Assembly (NCBI GenBank): GCA_035529075.1 | Contig: DATKXK010000011.1 | Span: forward strand, 64,295-128,294 | Direction: 5' to 3' | DNA length: 64,000 nucleotides | Origin: Acidobacteriota bacterium | Lineage (GTDB): Bacteria > Zixibacteria > MSB-5A5 > GN15 > FEB-12 | Part shown: piece by piece, positions 2,829 through 34,781 of the stretch | Layout of the letters: each line of letters starts with the position of its first letter | How positions within the stretch are numbered: the first letter of the stretch is position 1 | Position numbers and translations under genes: made by a program | The notes under the pieces: model-generated | Told to the model about the DNA's origin: nothing | The model's input: only the letters and a program-made list of their open reading frames with translations | Database searches by the model: none

Positions 2829-2900
2829 GGGGGTGTAGCTCAGTGGTAGAGCATCTGCCTTTTAAGCAGGTTGTCGATGGTTCGATCCCATCCACCCTCA
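2829..2900 (+). tRNA. tRNA-Lys (anticodon TTT)
   Basis: Hand-folded cloverleaf: acceptor GGGGGTG/CACCCTC, D-arm GCTC-AGTGGTA-GAGC, anticodon arm TCTGC-CTTTTAA-GCAGG, T-arm GATGG-TTCGATC-CCATC. No encoded CCA. Confidence 0.9.
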
Positions 2901-2920: not shown

Positions 2921-2993
<73 letters not shown>

Positions 2994-5411: not shown

Positions 5412-6281
5412 TCACTCTTTCAGGTACACCGTCTTTGCTTTTCGTACCACCAGCCCATCCTTCTCAAGACCTGCGACGGCTCGTTCCACCTCGGCGGCTG
5501 ACCGGCTCAGAACGCGGGCAATCGTGCCCGTGCGGAGCTGTCTGCGCGTGGTCAGGCGGCGGATGATCTCACCGCGAATCTGGCGTATCGAACCATCGAA
5601 GGCCTTCTGTCGGGCCAGCGGCCTGACCGTGCCAAGCTGCCTGGGCAGCGCCAGGGCGCTATAATCCATCAAGGCATAATGCCACTCGCGGGCCTGCTTT
5701 CTTGGCAGCAGTTGCAGCGCCACAGACTCGAGCTGGCGGGGGGTTGTCGACGGAGGCAATTGCAACTCGTGGATCAGGACCCGGCGGATGTTGATGTCAA
5801 CCGCCACAAACGGTTTGTTGTAGGCGAAAATCGGAATGGCCCGCGACGTGTACGGGCCGATCCCGGGCAACCGGATCAGAGCAGCAGGGTCGTCAGGCAA
5901 GATGCCGCCGTGTCGAGCAATCACGACGCGAGCCATCTCCCTGAGGAAAAGCGCCCTCCGGTTGTATCCCAGCCCCGACCAGGCGGCCAGCAGTTGCCGG
6001 CTCGATGCCTCGGCCAGGGCGGACCAGGCGGGCCAGCGTGCAATCCAGCTGTCGTACCTGGGCACGACGCGTTCCACCTGCGTTTGCTGCAGCATGATTT
6101 CGGCAACCGCAATCCTGTACGGATCGCGCGTCTGGCGGAATGGCAGTGAACGTCCATGCTCCCGGTAAAAAGCCCGGATTTTGCGCCGAAAACTGTACAC
6201 TTTCTCTCTTGATATGGTCACGGGAGACGAGTATACGGCATACGGGGCCGACCGGCAAGACGTTGCGCCCTGGTTTGCCAT
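5412..6281 (-). CDS. HhH-GPD base-excision glycosylase (MutY/Nth family) with C-terminal winged-helix-like tail
   Basis: AEIMLQQTQV, WSGLGYNRRA, LPGIGPYTS hairpin-helix-hairpin. The start is uncertain; an alternative GTG at 6200 would leave a normal divergent intergenic region. Confidence 0.75.
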   Translation of the reverse strand: MANQGATSCRSAPYAVYSSPVTISREKVYSFRRKIRAFYREHGRSLPFRQTRDPYRIAVAEIMLQQTQVERVVPRYDSWIARWPAWSALAEASSRQLLAAWSGLGYNRRALFLREMARVVIARHGGILPDDPAALIRLPGIGPYTSRAIPIFAYNKPFVAVDINIRRVLIHELQLPPSTTPRQLESVALQLLPRKQAREWHYALMDYSALALPRQLGTVRPLARQKAFDGSIRQIRGEIIRRLTTRRQLRTGTIARVLSRSAAEVERAVAGLEKDGLVVRKAKTVYLKE

Positions 6282-6324
6282 CGTCTGCGTTGACTGCCGT
6301 CACGCCGAGGTGTATCTTCAGTCC

Positions 6325-7818
6325 ATGCGGAATCCTCCTGCGCTCGGTCGCTCTCTGCCCGGAATCAATCCGGGCGCGGTTTCAGGATACGTGGTCACGC
6401 TGGGAATCGTCTTCGCGGCCTTCCTGGTGTACGCCTTGTTGAGGAAACCGCTCTACTTATGGGCGGCGGCCGGTTTGCCCGTGGCTCTTCTCGTAGTGTC
6501 CAACCCGCGGGTGGCGCTCTGGCAGTTTGTGTTCGTGCTCTTCATCTATGTCCCGGCCATCAGGAGCATCCCCCTCTACCTGGTGGATATCAGCGCCATG
6601 CTGGCCATCCTCGCTGCGGCACTCGACCTGTTCCTGCGCGGTGGCGGGCCGGGCCGGCCGCCCCTGCTGGCCGGTAACTATCTGGCTATTCTTGCGGCCC
6701 TGGCCATAGCCGGTCTGTTCAGCTATGATCCGTCGAGGGCCCTGCGACCACTGCTTAGAGTCGGCGTTCTGTTTGTCACTTTTCTTTCGGTGTATCGTCT
6801 GGCCGGCCGGGCCGATGTCGCGAGGATGCTCAGCCTTTTCTTCGGCCTTTGCGCCGTGTATTCGGCGTTCGTCGTGGGGCAGTTTCTCGCCGGCGGCGGT
6901 TCCGTTCGAGTGTTCGGACTTGCCCGCGTTGCTTTCGATGAATTGGCCATGCTGGCTCTGCCGGTCGGTGTGGCACTGTTTCTGTGGTCATCTGACAGGC
7001 GAGCAATACCATATTTGATCGGTTCAGTTCTGGTGGCCGGAGCCCTGGTGGCAACGCAATCCCGGGCCTCCATCCTGTTCGGCTTTACAGCCGCGTTTCT
7101 GGCCCTGGCCATTACCTTTCTGCGGGTGCGAAGAATGCGCGGAGCGACGGGCCTTGCAGGGGCGGACGCCGGGTTGGTTCTGACGGCCCGATCGGCCGGG
7201 CGGCGGTCGGGCGCCCTGGTGGTTTCGTTTTTAGTCCTGGCCGCGACCGTCATGGTTCTGCAGCAGGGACTCTTTCAGGGCGTACTGGCAAGGTTCGAGG
7301 GCTTGTTCACATCCCGACCCGGCGGGACCTTTCTGCTGCGCATCACACTGTGGAAGACAGCCCTTGCCGCCTTCTGGGATCATCCCCTGTTGGGCGTGGG
7401 TCCCGGGATGTTTCGCCGCATTTCCGACGTCTACACTACCATTCACCTCGATCCTACCTTCCTGTGGGTCAGGGGAAAGTCGGCTCACAATCTCTTCCTG
7501 CATTACCTTGCGGAAACTGGACTGGTGGGCGCTGCCGCCCTGCTGGCGCTGTTTGTCAACCAACTGCGTCTCATAAGGCGGCGGTGGGTACGGGTCGCCG
7601 ATCCGAACCGGTTCGGCCCGACTCTGGCACTGTACCTTTGCGGGCTGCTGCTTCTGGCTACCACCTTGTTGGAGGCGGGCTGGATGTGGGGCCAGACGGG
7701 TTTTATCGCGGTCTTTTTCCTGGCTGTCATCGCACGCCAGGCGGACCGTGACAGGCGGGCATCGTTGAGGTCGGTCACGGCGGCGGGGCTTGCCGAGAGT
7801 GAGAGCACACCGGGTTAA
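6325..7818 (+). CDS. O-antigen ligase-like (Wzy_C) polytopic membrane protein
   Basis: Many TM segments; SRASILFG...; periplasmic loop then HNLFLHYLAETGLVG. The ATG at 6325 was chosen because the track start (6181) overlaps the divergent gene. Confidence 0.7.
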   Translation: MRNPPALGRSLPGINPGAVSGYVVTLGIVFAAFLVYALLRKPLYLWAAAGLPVALLVVSNPRVALWQFVFVLFIYVPAIRSIPLYLVDISAMLAILAAALDLFLRGGGPGRPPLLAGNYLAILAALAIAGLFSYDPSRALRPLLRVGVLFVTFLSVYRLAGRADVARMLSLFFGLCAVYSAFVVGQFLAGGGSVRVFGLARVAFDELAMLALPVGVALFLWSSDRRAIPYLIGSVLVAGALVATQSRASILFGFTAAFLALAITFLRVRRMRGATGLAGADAGLVLTARSAGRRSGALVVSFLVLAATVMVLQQGLFQGVLARFEGLFTSRPGGTFLLRITLWKTALAAFWDHPLLGVGPGMFRRISDVYTTIHLDPTFLWVRGKSAHNLFLHYLAETGLVGAAALLALFVNQLRLIRRRWVRVADPNRFGPTLALYLCGLLLLATTLLEAGWMWGQTGFIAVFFLAVIARQADRDRRASLRSVTAAGLAESESTPG

Positions 7819-7850: not shown

Positions 7851-7973
7851 AAAATGGATTGGGATGCCTGATCCCGTTTGGAAAGACCCTCACAATTGCG
7901 CTTCCCGCCATACGCAAGTTGCACTGAATTTGTGGCCTGCAAGAGCCACAGGTAATAAACCAAGGAGTGTTCC

Positions 7974-8363
7974 ATGATGAAAGTAGTTTTACTACTGGCG
8001 GTCCTGCTGGTATTCGTGCTCGCCCCGTGCGGAGACCTTGTCTCGAAGGACAAGCCGTGGGATGATGGGAACGACGGCGGACCTAGCGACGGCGGGCCCG
8101 AAGGGGAGGACCATCCCTGGGGAGGCGAAAACCAGACGCCCGGTGATATCTGGAATCGGCTCAGCCCACTGGAAAGCGCCACCGGTGTCTTTGTGGTCGA
8201 TGCCTTGTACCGCCTGCCGGGCATCGATACGTATCTCGAATCCCGTTTGTTCTGGGTCAGAACCGACCGGCCTTACCGCGACATTCAGAAAAAAAATCGG
8301 GGCGTCACCGACGTTCCGAGGCAGGAGAATTCATCAATCGGGAGCTACGGGGTAGAAAAGTGA
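7974..8363 (+). CDS. Small exported Gly/Asp/Asn-rich protein, unknown function
   Basis: Hydrophobic signal MMKVVLLLAVLLVFVLAPCG, good RBS. Its stop overlaps the GTG start of the downstream activator (GTGA). Confidence 0.6.
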   Translation: MMKVVLLLAVLLVFVLAPCGDLVSKDKPWDDGNDGGPSDGGPEGEDHPWGGENQTPGDIWNRLSPLESATGVFVVDALYRLPGIDTYLESRLFWVRTDRPYRDIQKKNRGVTDVPRQENSSIGSYGVEK

Positions 8364-10639
8364 AGCAGAAGAGCAATAACACAGGCACGGAGTTCTGCGA
8401 TGCGGTAGCGACGTACATATCGTCGCTGGCCCAAAAGCGGGACTGCGCCGGTGTTGTCAGGTACTACGAGGCACATCGTAGTCTCATTGACGACGCCGGT
8501 GGATCCTGGGCGGGCGCGATCCTGCTCAAGGTGTCCGACGCCTGGGCTTCCCTCACTGACTACCCTGCAGCCTTGAAAACGGCTCGTGTCGCACAGGCCA
8601 AGGCAGCCGAAGACGGAGACAGCGTCCTTCTTGCTGAGATCTTCGTCACTCTCGGAGGCATCCTGCGCGACATGGGACAGGTGAAGGAAGCGCAAAAGGC
8701 GTTTCAGGACGCGGAATCAATCTTCCGCCGTAACGACTGTCTCGAAGGTCAGAGCCGCGCGCTCAATCTCCTGGCCGGACTGTACTTCCGGCAGGCGGAC
8801 TATCGCAGCGCCCTGCGGGTACTCATGGACGCAGTGGAGATTGCGCGCAAACTCGACGACAAGCAGAAGCTGGCCTTCATGATGGGAAACATCGGCCGGG
8901 TTTACACCTTTATGGGCGATCTGGCCGAAGCCGAGAAGCACCTGACCATCAACGTCGATCTCTCCACGGAGCTTCGGGACGAGTTGGAGGTGGCGCGTGC
9001 GTATCTGTCGCTCGGTTATATTCACATCCAACAAGCCGCCTATGACAAGGCGGAGCGGGCGCTGGCGCAGGCATATCCGCGGATCATTACGGCCGCGAGC
9101 CGGCGGGACGAGGTCATTTACATGACCTACCTCGGTGAACTGCGATACCGCACCGGCCGCAACGAGGAATCCGGCGCAGTTCTCGAGAAGGCGCTGGTCA
9201 TGGCGGAGGGCATCGCGCCGGGGACGACCCTGGTCGGCCGTGTCCTCAGGCACCTGGCTGAGTTGAACTTGCGCCTGGACAACTACCGTCTGGTCCGGAA
9301 GTTTGCCGCCCAGTCCATGGTCATAATGGAAAAGACCTCAAACAAGGTCGAAACCGGCGCGCTGCTGCGTATAAAGGCGCAGGTGGCCCAGGCGCACGGT
9401 CACAAAAAGGACGCCGTCCGGCTCTACAAAAAGGCGATCGACGTGCTGGATGAATCCGGTGTTCGCTTTGAGAGGGCTGAAGCTCTGGTGGCGGCGGGCA
9501 AATGCGAACTGTTCGGTCAGCGGCAGCGCATGACCTACCTGTTCCGTGCCGAGGAGTACTATTCCCGGTGTCGGATGACTCAGCGGCTTGACAAGGTCAG
9601 CCGGTTGATCAGCTCTCTTGGCTGCACCAAGGCGGGCCCGGTAACTCCAACGAGAACCGGGACGACGGGCGGGGTCGACTTTCTGACGGCCTCACCGGTG
9701 ATTCAACGTTTCAAGGCACAGTTGCCGATGTTCGGCCATTCCGACCTTCCGCTCATGCTCACCGGTGAGACCGGTGTCGGCAAGGATCATCTGGCCCGGT
9801 ACTTCCACTCCCTGGTTCGGCCCGGCGGACCGTTTGTGGCCATCAACTGCGCTTCGGTTCCCGAGACGCTCCTTGAATCGGAGTTGTTCGGCTACAGCCG
9901 GGGAGCTTTCACGGGTGCCGACGCAAGCAAGTGCGGTCTGTTCGTAGCCGCAAACGGCGGTGTCCTGATGCTCGATGAGATCGGCGACATGCCCCTGAAG
10001 CTTCAGGCCAAGCTGCTTGGAGTTCTGGAGCGGCGGAAAGTCATTCCTCTCGGTTCTACGACCGAGGTTGCCCTTGACGTCATCCTGGTCGCGGCCACGA
10101 ACAAGAACCTCGAAGCCATGGTCGAAGACGGTACGTTCCGGCGCGATCTGTACTACCGGCTCAGCGGCATTACCTTCCGCATCCCGCCGTTACGAGAGCG
10201 CCGGGAGGACATTGCACTTCTGCTGAAGCACTTTCTGGTAGAGCATGATCTTCTGCCGGAGGACCTGGCACCGCCTGCCGAACTGGTCAGGCTGTTTCTG
10301 GCCTATGATTGGCCGGGTAATATCCGCGAACTTGACAACAAAGTCAAACGACTCCAGGTCATGTCGCAAATGGTGGCTGAGGGAGACCTGGTAGAGTTGT
10401 ACCGTTCGCTGTTCCCCCAAAGCGCCGACCTGGACGAATCCTCGGACGGCGAGAGTCTTTTCCAGCGCGTGGAGCAGTTTGAGCGGAAACTGATCACGGA
10501 GGCGCTTCTGGCGGCACGCGGCAACAAGAGCGAGGCCGCACGCCTGCTGGGCGTGCACGAGGCGACGGTGCGCACCAAGCTGAAGCGGTACGGCATTTCG
10601 GTACCGCCCACGGTCTTAAGAGGAGGTGCACCCAGCTAA
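8360..10639 (+). CDS. Sigma-54-dependent transcriptional activator (EBP) with an N-terminal TPR region of about 440 aa
   Basis: Walker A GETGVGKD, GAFTGA loop, ESELFGY, DEIGDM, Fis-type HTH GNKSEAARLLGVHEATV. N-terminus is TPR-like and no receiver domain was recognised. Confidence 0.9.
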   Translation: MKQKSNNTGTEFCDAVATYISSLAQKRDCAGVVRYYEAHRSLIDDAGGSWAGAILLKVSDAWASLTDYPAALKTARVAQAKAAEDGDSVLLAEIFVTLGGILRDMGQVKEAQKAFQDAESIFRRNDCLEGQSRALNLLAGLYFRQADYRSALRVLMDAVEIARKLDDKQKLAFMMGNIGRVYTFMGDLAEAEKHLTINVDLSTELRDELEVARAYLSLGYIHIQQAAYDKAERALAQAYPRIITAASRRDEVIYMTYLGELRYRTGRNEESGAVLEKALVMAEGIAPGTTLVGRVLRHLAELNLRLDNYRLVRKFAAQSMVIMEKTSNKVETGALLRIKAQVAQAHGHKKDAVRLYKKAIDVLDESGVRFERAEALVAAGKCELFGQRQRMTYLFRAEEYYSRCRMTQRLDKVSRLISSLGCTKAGPVTPTRTGTTGGVDFLTASPVIQRFKAQLPMFGHSDLPLMLTGETGVGKDHLARYFHSLVRPGGPFVAINCASVPETLLESELFGYSRGAFTGADASKCGLFVAANGGVLMLDEIGDMPLKLQAKLLGVLERRKVIPLGSTTEVALDVILVAATNKNLEAMVEDGTFRRDLYYRLSGITFRIPPLRERREDIALLLKHFLVEHDLLPEDLAPPAELVRLFLAYDWPGNIRELDNKVKRLQVMSQMVAEGDLVELYRSLFPQSADLDESSDGESLFQRVEQFERKLITEALLAARGNKSEAARLLGVHEATVRTKLKRYGISVPPTVLRGGAPS

Positions 10640-10786
10640 GCGATGCCACCGGACAGTGATCCGGGCGGATCACGCCTGACCTGCCGGAGCGTGTGATTGT
10701 GATAATGTGTCTGTTACAATGACGCTCCGTGAGGCCCGGTGAGAGTTATCGTTCGGTCGTACGAATCTCGCACACACTCCTTGGTT

Positions 10787-10827
10787 GCGGTAAGCGTTTG
10801 GTTTTTCAGGCGCTTACCGCTTTTTTT
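10787..10827 (+). terminator. Rho-independent terminator downstream of the EBP gene
   Basis: GCGGTAAGCG ... CGCTTACCGC 10-bp stem followed by TTTTTTT. Confidence 0.7.
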
Positions 10828-10941
10828 GTGCCGTCATTCGTATGATTGTACGGATTTGAACACCGCCGCCGGCCGCATAATTGACACCGAATGCCAGTAC
10901 GTTCATGCCGGGCAACACGATAGAGGTGCGTACCAGACCGA

Positions 10942-10957
10942 CGGCACGCGCCTTGCT
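10942..10957 (+). promoter_or_regulatory. Candidate sigma-54 (-24/-12) promoter
   Basis: CGGCAC-GCGCC-TTGCT matches TGGCAC-N5-TTGCW with exact GG/GC spacing; about 300 nt downstream of the EBP gene. Confidence 0.55.
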
Positions 10958-10966
10958 CTCATTCTG

Positions 10967-11072
10967 ATTGTCATTTTTACTCCTGAGCACTGTTGCCAGT
11001 GCTTGGTAGGTCCTCTTTTCTTTGGTGTGTGGCCGCCCGCAATTGAGGGGATTGCGGGCGGCGCGCTTTTTT
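10967..11072 (+). ncRNA. Candidate sigma-54-dependent small RNA or terminated leader (about 105 nt; 5' end inferred)
   Basis: Between the sigma-54 promoter and a strong terminator. Contains hairpin GCACTG-TTGC-CAGTGC and the C/U tract CCTCTTTTCTTTGG. No ORF with an RBS. Confidence 0.4.
11032..11072 (+). terminator. Rho-independent terminator
   Basis: GCCGCCCGCAAT-tgagggg-ATTGCGGGCGGC 12-bp stem, then GCGC TTTTTT. Confidence 0.7.
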
Positions 11073-11130
11073 GGCTCACACGATACGTTTTAAGTTGTGT
11101 TTTGAGAACCGGTTGCCCTTCTTTGACGCT

Positions 11131-11790
11131 ATGTCGCGGCCTGCCCTGGGATTGATAGAAACGAGGGGACTCGCCGGAGCACTGGCGGCAACCCGCGCGG
11201 CCACTGACGCCGGTCAGGTCGTTATTGCCTCCCTGGAGCAAACCGATGCCGGGATTGTCACAGTCCGTTTCGAGGGAGACTGGCAGGCAGTCCAGCAGGC
11301 GGTCGAGGCGGGAGCACGGGCCGCTGAAGCTCTGCACGACCTGATTTCCATGCACGTGATCCCTCGCACGGACAACGGTCTCAGTCCCATCCTGCCGTAC
11401 GGACGGTTCGTGGCCAGGTATCGCTCCGAGGAAGACAGGGGGCCGTCACCTCCGCGAACGCCGTCGCTGAAACCTGCCTCACGGCCGGAGCACCGGGAGA
11501 TCAAGCTGCCCCCCGCACAGCCCGCGCCCGCTGTACCGACAGTTGCGCGCGTGGCGCCGCCGCCGAAACCACCGGTCACGCCAGAGCCCGCCGTTATCCC
11601 CGCGCCCGCCGTCCAACCGACTTCCGCCCCGCAGCCGCTTAGTCTTGACGAACTGGCAGAGATGCCGGTGGTCAAACTCCGCAAGTATGCACGGACAATC
11701 AGGAACCTTCCGATACAGGGCCGCCAGATCTCCAAGGCGAACAAGGAGACTCTGCTGGAAGCTATCCGAAGCGTCCGCGTGCCCGAGTAG
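11131..11790 (+). CDS. BMC-H (PduA/EutM-type) shell-domain protein with a Pro-rich linker and a Rho_N/SAP-like C-terminal domain
   Basis: ALGLIETRGL...GIVTVRFEGDWQAVQQAVEAG...HVIPR...ILP aligns along the PduA fold. The C-terminal roughly 140 aa are PxP-rich, then LSLDELAEMPVVKLRKYAR... Confidence 0.85.
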   Translation: MSRPALGLIETRGLAGALAATRAATDAGQVVIASLEQTDAGIVTVRFEGDWQAVQQAVEAGARAAEALHDLISMHVIPRTDNGLSPILPYGRFVARYRSEEDRGPSPPRTPSLKPASRPEHREIKLPPAQPAPAVPTVARVAPPPKPPVTPEPAVIPAPAVQPTSAPQPLSLDELAEMPVVKLRKYARTIRNLPIQGRQISKANKETLLEAIRSVRVPE

Positions 11791-12138
11791 ATAACTTCGC
11801 GCCACCGGTCTCCATAATCTGCAATCGATCCGTCAAGTCTTCTCTCTTCCGCCGGATCGATCAACCCGGCGGGGCACGCACTCACCGACGAACCGATATC
11901 CTGCTCTGATGCGAGCTTCAGTGCGTTCAAGCTGGCGGATGATGCGGGACCGTGACGAGGTAATGGGCGGGTCGGAGTTCCCTGCGCAGGGGGCGTTTTC
12001 GGTTGATTTATCGGGTCTTACGGTATATATATGACCTCTGAGAAACCGTCGGCAAGTGTTCAACAGGGGTCGGCAAGGTAAGTGTCCGGTCCGTCGGCAT
12101 ACCCGCCGGACGGGCCTGCGCAGGAGGGCGGTGCAGTC

Positions 12139-13092
12139 ATGGAGAAGATCCTCATCACCGGTGCACTGGGCCAGATCGGCTCGGAACTGACCGTGGTGTT
12201 GCGCCAGCGGTACGGGCGGGAGAACGTCGTGGCCACGGATATCCGGATGCCGAGCGACATCAGCCTGCGCGATTCCGGTCCGTTTGAATTCCTGGACGTC
12301 CTTGATCCGCATCACATCACGAGGGTCATGCAGATCTACAAGGCGGACACCATCTACCATCTTGCGGCGATTCTGTCGGCGGTGGGCGAAACCCGCCCGA
12401 ATGTCGCCTGGCAGGTGAACGTGAACGGTCTGTACAACATCCTCGAGGCGGCGCGCCAGTACGACTGCGCCCTGTTTGTCCCCAGTTCGATAGGCGCTTT
12501 CGGCAAGTCCACGCCGCTGGACAACACGCCGCAGGACACGATTCAGCGTCCCGATACGATCTACGGGGTCACCAAGGTGGCCGGAGAGCTTGTTTGCGAC
12601 TACTATCACAAGCGCTTTGGACTGGACACGCGCGGGCTTCGCTTCCCGGGACTGATCTCGCACCAGACCGACCCCGGCGGCGGAACCACCGACTACGCCG
12701 TTGAGATCTTTTACGACGCCATCCGGCATCGGGAATTCACCTGTTACCTGCGGGCTGATACGTCTCTGGACATGATGTACATGCCGGACGCCATCAGGGC
12801 GATGATTGACCTGATGGAGGCCGACCCGTCCCGGCTGGTGCACCGCAATGCCTTCAACGTCACGGCGATGAATTTTACCCCGGCGCAACTGGCCGACGAA
12901 ATCCGGAAACACATCCCGGAGTTTGAGATTAAATACCAGGTAGACCCGGAGCGACAGGAGATCGCGGACAGCTGGCCTAACAACATGGACGATTCGGCCG
13001 CCCGCAGGGAATGGGGTTGGCGTCACGAGTACGATCTTCCCAGGATGACATCAGACATGCTGGACGTCTTGTCCCGGAAGCTGGCGGGGTGA
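12139..13092 (+). CDS. tdh: L-threonine 3-dehydrogenase, NAD-dependent epimerase/SDR type
   Basis: ITGALGQIGSEL Rossmann motif, GGGTTDYAVEIFY, MMYMPDAI, ADSWP. The ATG at 12139 follows a GGAGGG RBS. Confidence 0.9.
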   Translation: MEKILITGALGQIGSELTVVLRQRYGRENVVATDIRMPSDISLRDSGPFEFLDVLDPHHITRVMQIYKADTIYHLAAILSAVGETRPNVAWQVNVNGLYNILEAARQYDCALFVPSSIGAFGKSTPLDNTPQDTIQRPDTIYGVTKVAGELVCDYYHKRFGLDTRGLRFPGLISHQTDPGGGTTDYAVEIFYDAIRHREFTCYLRADTSLDMMYMPDAIRAMIDLMEADPSRLVHRNAFNVTAMNFTPAQLADEIRKHIPEFEIKYQVDPERQEIADSWPNNMDDSAARREWGWRHEYDLPRMTSDMLDVLSRKLAG

Positions 13093-15622: not shown

Positions 15623-16870
15623 ATGGGTTACAGTGACAAAGTCAGGGCAATATACCAGGAACAGATCAAGGAAATTCAGGACGCCGGGCTGTTCAAGCAG
15701 GAACGGTTCATCCATTCCTCCCAGGCGGCGGACATCGAGGTCGAATTCCCCATCGGCTCGTCGTTGAAAAAAGTCATCAACATGTGTGCCAACAACTACC
15801 TGGGGCTTTCCAGCCACCCGGAGGTCATCAAGGCGGCGCACGACGGGCTGGAGACGCGCGGCTACGGCATGTCTTCCGTCCGGTTCATCTGCGGCACGCA
15901 GGACATTCACCATGAACTCGAGCGGAAAGTGAGCGAGTTCCTGGGCACGGAAGATACCATCCTGTTTCCCTCCTGCATGGACGCCAACGCCGGCGTGTTC
16001 GAGGCCATCCTCGGCAGCGACGACGTTATGATCTCGGATCGTCTCGTGCACGCCTCGATCATCGACGGGATGCGGCTGTGCAGTGCCGTGCACGACACCT
16101 TCAAGCACTCCAACATGCAGCACCTGGAATCAAAATTGCAACTCCACGCCGACAAGCGATTCAAGGTGGTCATTACCGACGGCGTGTTCTCCATGGACGG
16201 CGACACGGCCAAACTCGACGAGATCGTCGAGCTGTGCGAGAAGTACGACGCCATGGTGTTCGTGGATGACTCCCACGCATCGGGTTTCATCGGCCGGACC
16301 GGCAGGGGCACTCACGAAAAATGTGGCGTCATGGGCAAAATCGACATCATCACCACAACCTTCGGTAAAGCCCTCGGCGGTGCCTCGGGGGGCTGCGTCT
16401 CCGGGCGTCGCGAACTGGTGGAACTGTGCCGCCAGAAGGCGCGGCCCTACCTGTTTTCCAACACCATCGCCCCGGTGGTTGTCTCGGGCGTGCTCAAAGT
16501 GCTCGATATCCTCTCCCGGAGCACCGAGCGGCGCGACAAGCTGGAAGCCAACACGGCGTACTGGCGCAAAGGCCTGGCCGAGGCCGGCTTCGTTCTCAAG
16601 GAGGGCGACACGCCCATCGTCCCTGTCATGCTGTTCAACGCCAAACTCTCGCAGGATTTCTCCCAGGACCTGTACAACGAGGGAATCTATGCCATGGGTT
16701 TCTTCTTCCCCGTGGTTCCCCAGGGCCAGGCGAGAATACGAACGCAGATTTCAGCCGCCCACGAAACACATCACCTCGACAAAGCACTCGAGGCGTTCAT
16801 CAAAGTCGGCAGGAAATACGACATCCTCGGCAAGACGAAGCAGGAGATCATCGAGAAATACGGAATGTAG
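15623..16870 (+). CDS. kbl: 2-amino-3-ketobutyrate CoA ligase (glycine C-acetyltransferase), alpha-oxoamine synthase family
   Basis: CANNYLGLS, VRFICGTQ, DDSHASGF, TFGKALGG (PLP Lys), FFFPVVPQGQARIRTQ. Confidence 0.92.
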   Translation: MGYSDKVRAIYQEQIKEIQDAGLFKQERFIHSSQAADIEVEFPIGSSLKKVINMCANNYLGLSSHPEVIKAAHDGLETRGYGMSSVRFICGTQDIHHELERKVSEFLGTEDTILFPSCMDANAGVFEAILGSDDVMISDRLVHASIIDGMRLCSAVHDTFKHSNMQHLESKLQLHADKRFKVVITDGVFSMDGDTAKLDEIVELCEKYDAMVFVDDSHASGFIGRTGRGTHEKCGVMGKIDIITTTFGKALGGASGGCVSGRRELVELCRQKARPYLFSNTIAPVVVSGVLKVLDILSRSTERRDKLEANTAYWRKGLAEAGFVLKEGDTPIVPVMLFNAKLSQDFSQDLYNEGIYAMGFFFPVVPQGQARIRTQISAAHETHHLDKALEAFIKVGRKYDILGKTKQEIIEKYGM

Positions 16871-34709: not shown

Positions 34710-34781
34710 AGCGGGCGGCCGGACTCGAACCGGCATTTTCTGGATGGGAGTCCCAACGGTTTACCGTTAACCTACGCCCGC
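34710..34781 (-). tRNA. tRNA-Gly-like with a non-canonical anticodon loop (ACUCCCA)
   Basis: Acceptor GCGGGCG/CGCCCGC plus U73, D-arm GGTT-AACGGTA-AACC, T-arm GCCGG-TTCGAGT-CCGGC. Anticodon arm TTGGG-ACTCCCA-TCCAG reads TCC by position, with C33 and C37. Confidence 0.7.

Follow-up and report, generated by a model that had tools for sequence, protein, structure and literature searches.

A candidate sigma-54-controlled small RNA family encoded beside its putative activator gene in Acidobacteriota, Zixibacteria and related bacteria

Small RNAs (sRNAs) encoded next to the sigma-54 activator that controls them are known from proteobacteria, and here we compare these systems with a predicted RNA of about 105 nucleotides (nt), called RNA-B, in a 64-kb stretch of DNA from an Acidobacteriota metagenome-assembled genome (this whole stretch is referred to as the window). 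RNA-B would be transcribed from a sigma-54 promoter located between the gene of a sigma-54 enhancer-binding protein (the activator) and a gene for a BMC-domain protein. An initial annotation of the window had proposed that the region encodes either an activator-controlled sRNA or a terminator-gated leader of the BMC gene.

The locus resembles that of NrsZ (NtrC), an sRNA whose gene lies directly downstream of the gene of its own sigma-54 activator, which has a TGGCAC-N5-TTGCW promoter and which was likewise discovered through the promoter motif in an intergenic region. However, NrsZ and RNA-B have no similarity in sequence or structure, and RNA-B has no Rfam match; NrsZ consists of three repeated stem-loops and is processed, whereas RNA-B is predicted to have two hairpins plus a pyrimidine tract. 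Moreover, the activator encoded in the window has a TPR sensor region and not a receiver domain, and the hosts belong to other phyla. In Pseudomonas, CbrB activates crcZ, and the CbrB- and sigma-54-dependent CrcZ and CrcY (PMC6296734) share with RNA-B the design of an activator-dependent sRNA. CbrB acts through several upstream subsites for which spacing on the same helix face matters (PMC6296734), a likeness to the two upstream dyads described below, but its subsites are non-palindromic whereas the dyads here span 16 base pairs (bp). CrcZ sequesters Crc via repeated A-rich motifs, while RNA-B has no such repeats. LuxO/Qrr and GlrR/GlmY have been tabulated as further pairs, and in Vibrio LuxO is a sigma-54 activator driving terminated sRNAs of about 100 nt encoded beside the activator gene (PMC7602753), as proposed here. 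Qrr and RNA-B are not homologous, however, and Qrr is Hfq-dependent and has four stem-loops. Qrr is also said to feed back on luxO mRNA, the activator's own message (reportedly described by Tu et al. 2010); the corresponding feedback in our locus is a candidate drawn from complementarity alone.

The predicted transcription unit of RNA-B is made up of the following features.

10942-10957, + strand: predicted sigma-54 promoter CGGCAC-GCGCC-TTGCT, with GG at 10943-10944 and GC at 10955-10956; fits TGGCAC-N5-TTGCW
10967-11072, + strand: RNA-B, predicted RNA of about 105 nt, based on fold, alignment A4 (25 loci), covariation and a covariance model
10969-10984, + strand: conserved 5' segment of RNA-B, UGUCAUUUUUACUCCU
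10983-11006, + strand: hairpin 1 of RNA-B, with the core GCACTG-TTGC-CAGTGC at 10987-11002
11009-11027, + strand: pyrimidine tract of RNA-B, GGUCCUCUUUUCUUUGGUG
11012-11025, + strand: C/U tract, CCTCTTTTCTTTGG, that is, CCUCUUUUCUUUGG
11032-11062, + strand: hairpin 2 of RNA-B, with the conserved loop GAGGG(GA)
11067-11072, + strand: U6 of RNA-B

The promoter motif was found exactly where it had been annotated, with exact spacing of its GG and GC elements. By itself the motif is at chance level, as the window holds three matches (at most one mismatch) against 1.9 expected, and the case for the promoter therefore rests on the comparison with related loci. GGCA and TG were invariant in all 28 homologous loci, at least 90% of them also retain the C of the -12 GC (one locus has TTGA), and not a single insertion or deletion occurred between the -24 and -12 elements, so that their spacing is fixed. 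The 10-12 nt that follow the -12 element vary freely, after which conservation resumes at (U)GUCAUUYUUACUCC. This restart (GTCAT) coincides with the start expected for a sigma-54 promoter, at about 10967-10969.

To collect related loci, the BMC protein was a better search handle than the activator. A genome scan seeded with the whole activator gave mainly generic AAA+ activators, the best match having 48% identity, and a metagenome scan with the C-terminal domain of the BMC protein gave 80 loci. The promoter-plus-RNA unit was sought in these by nhmmer and then with a covariance model built on 25 distinct sequences. The unit was present in about 30 distinct loci; in the BMC-seeded loci it lay on the + strand immediately upstream of the BMC gene, and it was found in all 26 of those that reach the activator or RNA position, which comprise loci with the orthologous activator and loci too short to reveal it. 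In all activator-bearing loci the covariance model scored 65-121 bits, while the flanking proteins were just 40-65% identical. The mean column identity of the homologous loci was 61-72%, indicating that they are not assembly duplicates of one sequence. The syntenic locus L086, for example, has 55% identity in the BMC protein and 64% in the activator, and shows the same intergenic layout, the same GG/GC elements and compensatory changes in both hairpins. The hosts of the module are Acidobacteriota, Zixibacteria, GN15 and FCB-group bacteria, and the window itself contains a single copy of RNA-B. Viral contigs scanned with the tract pattern gave 35 matches, all of them chance hits of at most 22 bits by the RNA model.

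The presence of RNA-B follows that of the activator. Five of six activator-seeded loci carry it; the sixth, L169 (CP070824.1, Zixibacteria), has an assembly gap of 100 N (6474-6573) that starts right after its proximal dyad and masks the place where RNA-B and any BMC gene would lie, with a transposase nearby. L171 and L172 (both Zixibacteria; L172 is from CP070756.1) possess the activator and RNA-B and have no BMC gene. There, RNA-B is followed by a sigma-70-type promoter and an open reading frame (ORF) for a small membrane protein of 48-53 residues. Conversely, BMC loci with plenty of sequence upstream and no activator (e.g. L094, L119 and L126-L168) did not contain the unit. RNA-B therefore travels with the activator, and its link to the BMC gene is not strict. 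Neither RNA-B nor the dyads nor the anti-ribosome-binding-site seed described below accompany the more remote TPR activators (42-48% identity; L001, L002, L003 and L006). The small membrane protein is itself conserved, with the motif K/R-W-Y-H/Y-L/I (L086 5716-5865, L170 7499-7657, L171 6833-6994 and L172 6835-6981); it comes after the BMC gene in relatives and directly after RNA-B in L171 and L172, while in the window nothing comparable was seen behind the BMC gene.

The RNA predicted at 10967-11072 (106 nt) folds with -45.9 kcal/mol (z = -4.5 versus shuffles). Its length ranges from 111 to 119 nt across the loci through indels of 1-2 nt, and none of the positions within the conserved blocks varies (alignment A4). 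Each of the parts that had been annotated within the RNA was recovered: the 5' hairpin at 10987-11002, whose stem can be extended to 10983-11006; the C/U tract at 11012-11025; and the terminator at 11032-11072, which consists of a 13-pair stem (11032-11062), GCGC and T6 and hence has the GC-rich stem-loop and U-run of an intrinsic terminator. In hairpin 2, 98.9% of the alignment cells are paired and compensatory changes occur at 8 of 11 pairs. The variation in hairpin 1 consists mostly of G-U changes. The abundant G-U pairs are compatible only with an RNA from the + strand. Almost no variation is seen in the pyrimidine tract or in the loop of hairpin 2, CGAGGGGAG, and altogether three invariant elements appear to be exposed: the 5' element UGUCAUUYUUACUCCU, the tract and the loop GAGGGGA. 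A CCUC-GAGG pseudoknot is a candidate, for which covariation is uninformative as both sides are near-invariant. No conserved reading frame runs through the RNA across the loci, in line with the initial annotation: an NTG at +2 is not universal (it is CG in three loci), and the indels of 1-2 nt break the frames. An ORF antisense to RNA-B was likewise rejected, since the minus-strand 'SD-ATG' (Shine-Dalgarno, SD) runs into stops in L086.

Rfam 15, which includes Qrr, GlmY/GlmZ, CrcZ, NrsZ and Pxr, gave no match at gathering score to RNA-B in the window or in seven homologous loci, and relaxing the search to E-values up to 10 over 10600-11200 produced only noise of at most 15 bits (RybB, for instance, reached 13.9 bits where its gathering score is 40). 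Judged by sequence comparison, RNA-B is thus a family new to Rfam, of known regulatory design. Against this background it is hardly credible that the unit is not a functional RNA at all, i.e. that within a long intergenic region a chance -24/-12 match happens to precede hairpins which are no more than common terminators or palindromic DNA. The expected number of motif matches in the window would allow for it, but the whole unit is kept in loci with flanking proteins of only 40-65% identity, the compensatory and G-U changes are strand-specific, and the spacer between the -12 element and +1 varies between fixed flanks. Conservation, covariation and the fixed promoter flanks thus effectively refute this explanation already.

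Upstream of the promoter lie the gene of the activator, a small gene that precedes it and two dyads.

7957-7973, + strand: ribosome-binding region of the lipoprotein gene, AAACCAAGGAGTGTTCC, heading the lipoprotein-activator operon; exact complement of the RNA-A seed (see below) and candidate target of RNA-B
7974-8363, + strand: predicted lipoprotein of 129 residues; its translation has a signal peptide plus an LAPC lipobox
8360-10639, + strand: sigma-54 enhancer-binding protein (activator) of 759 residues; Pfam Sigma54_activat, AAA_lid_14 and HTH_8, with GAFTGA
10749-10764, no strand assigned: site A, the distal dyad TCGTT-N6-TACGA; its centre is at about -210 relative to the start of RNA-B, and it is a candidate binding site of the activator
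10838-10853, no strand assigned: site B, the proximal dyad TCGTA-N6-TACGG; its centre is at -121.5 relative to the start of RNA-B, and it is a candidate for an upstream activating sequence

The activator is composed of an N-terminal TPR region, an AAA+ domain with GAFTGA (Sigma54_activat match with E = 1.5e-57) and a C-terminal HTH_8, and has no receiver domain. It is the sole sigma-54 activator gene in the window, and its orthologs are widespread (54-68% identity). A homologous small ORF stands directly before the activator in L086, L169-L175 and others, and as the lipoprotein ORF overlaps the start of the activator gene, the two are probably co-transcribed on a single message. The activator and BMC genes are separated by 490 nt. 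Within this intergenic region are two of the only three matches to the dyad pattern in the 64 kb, and two 16-bp dyads of the form TCGTA-N6-TACGA were present in all 19 loci compared. In these 19 loci the proximal dyad is centred either at -119.5 to -121.5 or at -130.5 to -133.5, and the distal one at -208 to -211 or -218 to -222 (-235.5 in L112); the position classes are offset by one helical turn. In L086, site B is the perfect palindrome TTCGTACGATCGTACGAA. We consider the dyads candidate binding sites for the neighbouring activator.

The possibility that RNA-B is a leader depends on its relation to the gene that follows.

11096-11130, + strand: spacer before the BMC ATG, with a weak TTGTGT-18-TTCTTT-6-ATG
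11131-11790, + strand: BMC-domain protein of 219 residues (Pfam BMC match, alignment A2); the usual, non-obligatory neighbour of RNA-B

Public annotation begins the BMC gene at a TTG at 11071 (239 residues), within the terminator U-run of RNA-B; its homologs all begin at an ATG equivalent to 11131, with the N-terminus M-x-R-x-ALGLIET. According to the leader explanation, the sigma-54 promoter would really serve the gene that follows (in Zixibacteria the one for the small membrane protein, otherwise BMC-SAP), with RNA-B as its 5' leader; hairpin 2 would control read-through, either by terminating transcription conditionally or as a site of processing. The gene 3' of RNA-B is indeed always on the same strand, 60-215 nt away, and the BMC gene of the window has neither a good -10 nor a Shine-Dalgarno sequence. 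The 10 bases past hairpin 2, counted from the alignment, are T-rich in about 25 of 30 loci; in the other five or so (L110, L121, L164, L132) the T-rich tail is missing, which means that hairpin 2 is not always a canonical terminator and that read-through into the downstream gene is possible there. The loop GAGGGGA, conserved in sequence and atypical of a plain terminator, also suggests an action beyond termination. On the other hand, the downstream gene changes while RNA-B stays, as seen in L171 and L172, the spacer past hairpin 2 is not conserved, and no conserved alternative (anti-terminator) pairing was seen. In relatives, the 60-140 nt between RNA-B and the BMC ATG hold sigma-70-like -35/-10 elements. 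In 17-20 of 26 loci (L132, L101, L086, L095 and others) the best -10 stops 5-9 nt short of the ATG, as in TTTACA-17-TATAAT-8-ATG of L132 and TATAAT-6-ATG of L101; L171 has TTTACA-17-TATAAT between RNA-B and the next ORF. This placement suggests that the BMC mRNAs of relatives are leaderless and separate, a geometry that would account for the missing Shine-Dalgarno sequence.

The statement in the initial annotation that the BMC gene lacks an obvious promoter thus fits the window, with its weak -10 (TTCTTT), and not most relatives. An attenuator in cis would call for a stable linkage to the BMC gene and a downstream gene without promoter-like elements of its own, whereas RNA-B has its own promoter, its own terminator and a varying downstream gene, as an independent transcription unit should. 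Taken together, the loci without a BMC gene, the mostly T-rich tails and the downstream promoters favour a separate transcription unit. We therefore regard the leader, the second of the two readings in the initial annotation, as unlikely; it is weakened by L171 and L172 and by the BMC promoters of the relatives, and the missing T-rich tails leave room for some read-through.

The reading that we favour, with moderate confidence, is that RNA-B is a separate non-coding RNA gene of about 105 nt, induced by the activator and acting in trans on purine-rich translation-initiation regions. As to activator control, which was the first of the two initial readings, support comes from the -24/-12 elements, the phased dyads, the conservation at +1, the covarying terminator and the co-occurrence with the activator. 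In this scheme the sigma-54 promoter at 10942-10957 would drive RNA-B once activated by the product of the neighbouring upstream gene, the TPR-type enhancer-binding protein, which may bind the dyads at about -121 and -210 and reach the promoter by DNA looping. Transcription would terminate at hairpin 2 plus the U-run. The invariant pyrimidine-rich strands of RNA-B, i.e. the 5' element and GGUCCUCUUUUCUUUGGUG, would then most likely pair with purine-rich initiation regions. Both strands are complementary to Shine-Dalgarno-type sequences, and the reverse complement of the 5' element (AGGAGTAARAATGACA / AGGAGUAAGAAUGACA) has the form SD-N5-ATG (SD-spacer-AUG), so that the proposal in the initial annotation that the tract is anti-Shine-Dalgarno-like appears plausible. 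The sole concrete candidate target is the lipoprotein ribosome-binding site heading the activator's own operon: both single strands of RNA-B pair in the same register with its near-invariant initiation region, AAACCAAGGAGUGUGUCAUG, in 13 of 13 loci. If real, this pairing would create a feedback loop like that of Qrr on luxO.

Several observations weigh against such a trans-acting RNA. Besides the chance-level promoter motif, the constant same-strand neighbour, the loci without a T-rich tail and the unusual hairpin-2 loop, no RpoN-box peptide is encoded in the 64-kb window. As regards targets, the reverse complement of the 5' segment (AGGAGTAARAATGACA) has no match in the window, neither RNA-B seed finds its reverse complement at an initiation region of the window, and no recurrent target emerged among all initiation regions of 16 loci. 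Pairing of RNA-B with the 5' end of the BMC mRNA was rejected as no better than shuffles. Even the pairing with the lipoprotein initiation region is modest, with -9 to -20 kcal/mol and z from -0.1 to -4. For the C/U tract, the only match to its reverse complement in the window lies inside a coding region (37911) and was judged to be chance.

The same lipoprotein ribosome-binding site is the counterpart of a second element, RNA-A, which lies between the two dyads.

10774-10827, + strand: RNA-A, comprising a seed, a 14-pair hairpin and a T-run (alignment A5)
10774-10786, + strand: single-stranded seed of RNA-A, ACACUCCUUGGUU
10787-10827, + strand: hairpin and T-run of RNA-A, predicted terminator of the activator operon

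The terminator annotated after the activator gene was located at this very position, and in its hairpin 98.2% of the alignment cells are paired, with compensatory changes in 8 of 14 pairs. The seed, (C)ACUCCUUGGU, and the lipoprotein ribosome-binding site, ACCAAGGAGU, are exact reverse complements of each other, and 10-14 contiguous pairs can form between the two in all 14 loci; within the ribosome-binding region, CCAAGGAG was invariant in the 14 loci compared. The flanks of the seed covary with those of the mRNA in such a way that pairing is preserved:

Window: mRNA GAG-UGU, RNA-A ACA-CUC
L132: mRNA GAG-UAAA, RNA-A UUUA-CUC
L121: mRNA GAGA, RNA-A UCUU
L171: mRNA GAACC, RNA-A GGUUC
L170 and L172: mRNA UAACC, RNA-A GGUUA

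Several loci offer too little room for a separate promoter, and the simplest view is therefore that the lipoprotein-activator mRNA has RNA-A as its 3' end. RNA-A is probably a 3'-end feedback element directed against the ribosome-binding site, working in cis on its own transcript or in trans after release. The closest analogue is the icaR mRNA of Staphylococcus aureus, in which 5'-3' pairing of the untranslated regions has reportedly been described (Ruiz de los Mozos et al. 2013 are said to be the source): there too, a pyrimidine-rich anti-Shine-Dalgarno sequence at the 3' end is complementary to the 5' Shine-Dalgarno sequence of the same transcript. RNA-A differs from icaR in that its target is the first cistron of a two-gene operon, that its pairing of 10-14 nt is conserved across phyla, and that the element is situated between two candidate activator-binding dyads. 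To our knowledge, a paired element of this kind is not part of the NrsZ, CrcZ, Qrr or GlmY systems.

The presence of RNA-A raises the question of whether RNA-B might bind another RNA, or a protein, rather than mRNA. We can conceive of three versions. First, and speculatively, the hairpin-2 loop, GAGGGGAG(U), would mimic the lipoprotein ribosome-binding site, AAGGAGUG, and titrate the seed of RNA-A. The loop is almost invariant and resembles the ribosome-binding site (GGAGUG), and in 11 of 13 loci it ranked first among the predicted partners of the seed of RNA-A; however, it was not the best partner in the window, the AGUG portion of the mimic is buried in the stem, and the loop-seed duplexes comprise 6-8 pairs including G-U, only 1-3 standard deviations above shuffles. 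Second, RNA-B would be a ligand of the Rho_N/SAP-like tail of the BMC-H protein. In this protein family of about 220 residues, a proline-rich linker joins the BMC-H domain to a conserved C-terminal domain of about 45 residues, which gives a weak Rho_N match in 12 of 18 members (best E-value 1e-4) and also has a weak SAP likeness. A PDB profile search with this domain returned only noise, and against its being the partner of RNA-B stands the occurrence of RNA-B in L171 and L172, which have no BMC gene. Third, RNA-B would sequester a global RNA-binding protein in the manner of CrcZ, an activator-dependent RNA that does sequester a protein (PMC6296734), yet RNA-B contains no repeated protein-binding motif. 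Overall we consider it distinctly unlikely that RNA-B acts in one of these three ways.

The two RNAs could also be joined into a single circuit around the activator operon, a scheme which we think improbable. RNA-A, as a perfect anti-ribosome-binding-site element on the first gene of the operon, would keep the system off, and RNA-B, once induced, would either reinforce this repression or relieve it by means of its loop mimicking the ribosome-binding site (GAGGGGAGU), which would titrate RNA-A. The Rho_N/SAP-like tail of the adjacent BMC-H protein may additionally bind RNA-B.

A few further observations concern the surroundings of the module. The C-terminal domain of the BMC protein (residues about 170-215) carries the motif VVKLRxYARTxxxLPIQGRQISxANKxxLLEAI, and the BMC-H protein is a stand-alone shell-type protein, with neither a BMC-P gene nor cargo enzymes evident among the neighbouring ORFs examined. 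Upstream of the lipoprotein gene lies one further feature.

6181-7818, + strand: Wzy_C-type membrane protein (Pfam match)

Such an O-antigen ligase-like gene is conserved next to the lipoprotein-activator operon, on its upstream side and in either orientation (the window, L086, L170, L173 and L175), which hints at a role of the module at the cell envelope. The BMC gene is followed on the + strand by genes for a short-chain dehydrogenase/epimerase, AcpS, an acetate-CoA ligase, a glycine C-acetyltransferase and an SDR. The NAD-dependent epimerase/dehydrogenase (12082-13092) and the glycine C-acetyltransferase Kbl (15623-16870) are also found downstream of the module in L086, L170 and L173, and may represent a threonine-to-glycine pathway pair. 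The only Rfam matches in the window were three tRNA genes, at 2829-2900 (+), 2921-2993 (+) and 34710-34781 (-).

With an sRNA beside its sigma-54 activator being already known from proteobacteria, the advance here lies in breadth and in a new family and not in the principle. The module provides a complete, testable wiring, made up of a TPR activator, two phased dyads, a sigma-54 promoter, RNA-B and an adjacent element directed against a ribosome-binding site, and it is open to heterologous reconstitution with no need to culture the hosts. Adding the RNA-B family to Rfam would improve annotation, as its terminator is now misread as the start of the BMC gene. If the BMC-H protein did bind RNA-B, this would tie a microcompartment-type protein to RNA rather than to metabolism. 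Post-transcriptional control is almost wholly unstudied in Acidobacteriota, Zixibacteria and their relatives, and RNA-B would be among the very few regulatory RNAs defined in these and related uncultured lineages.

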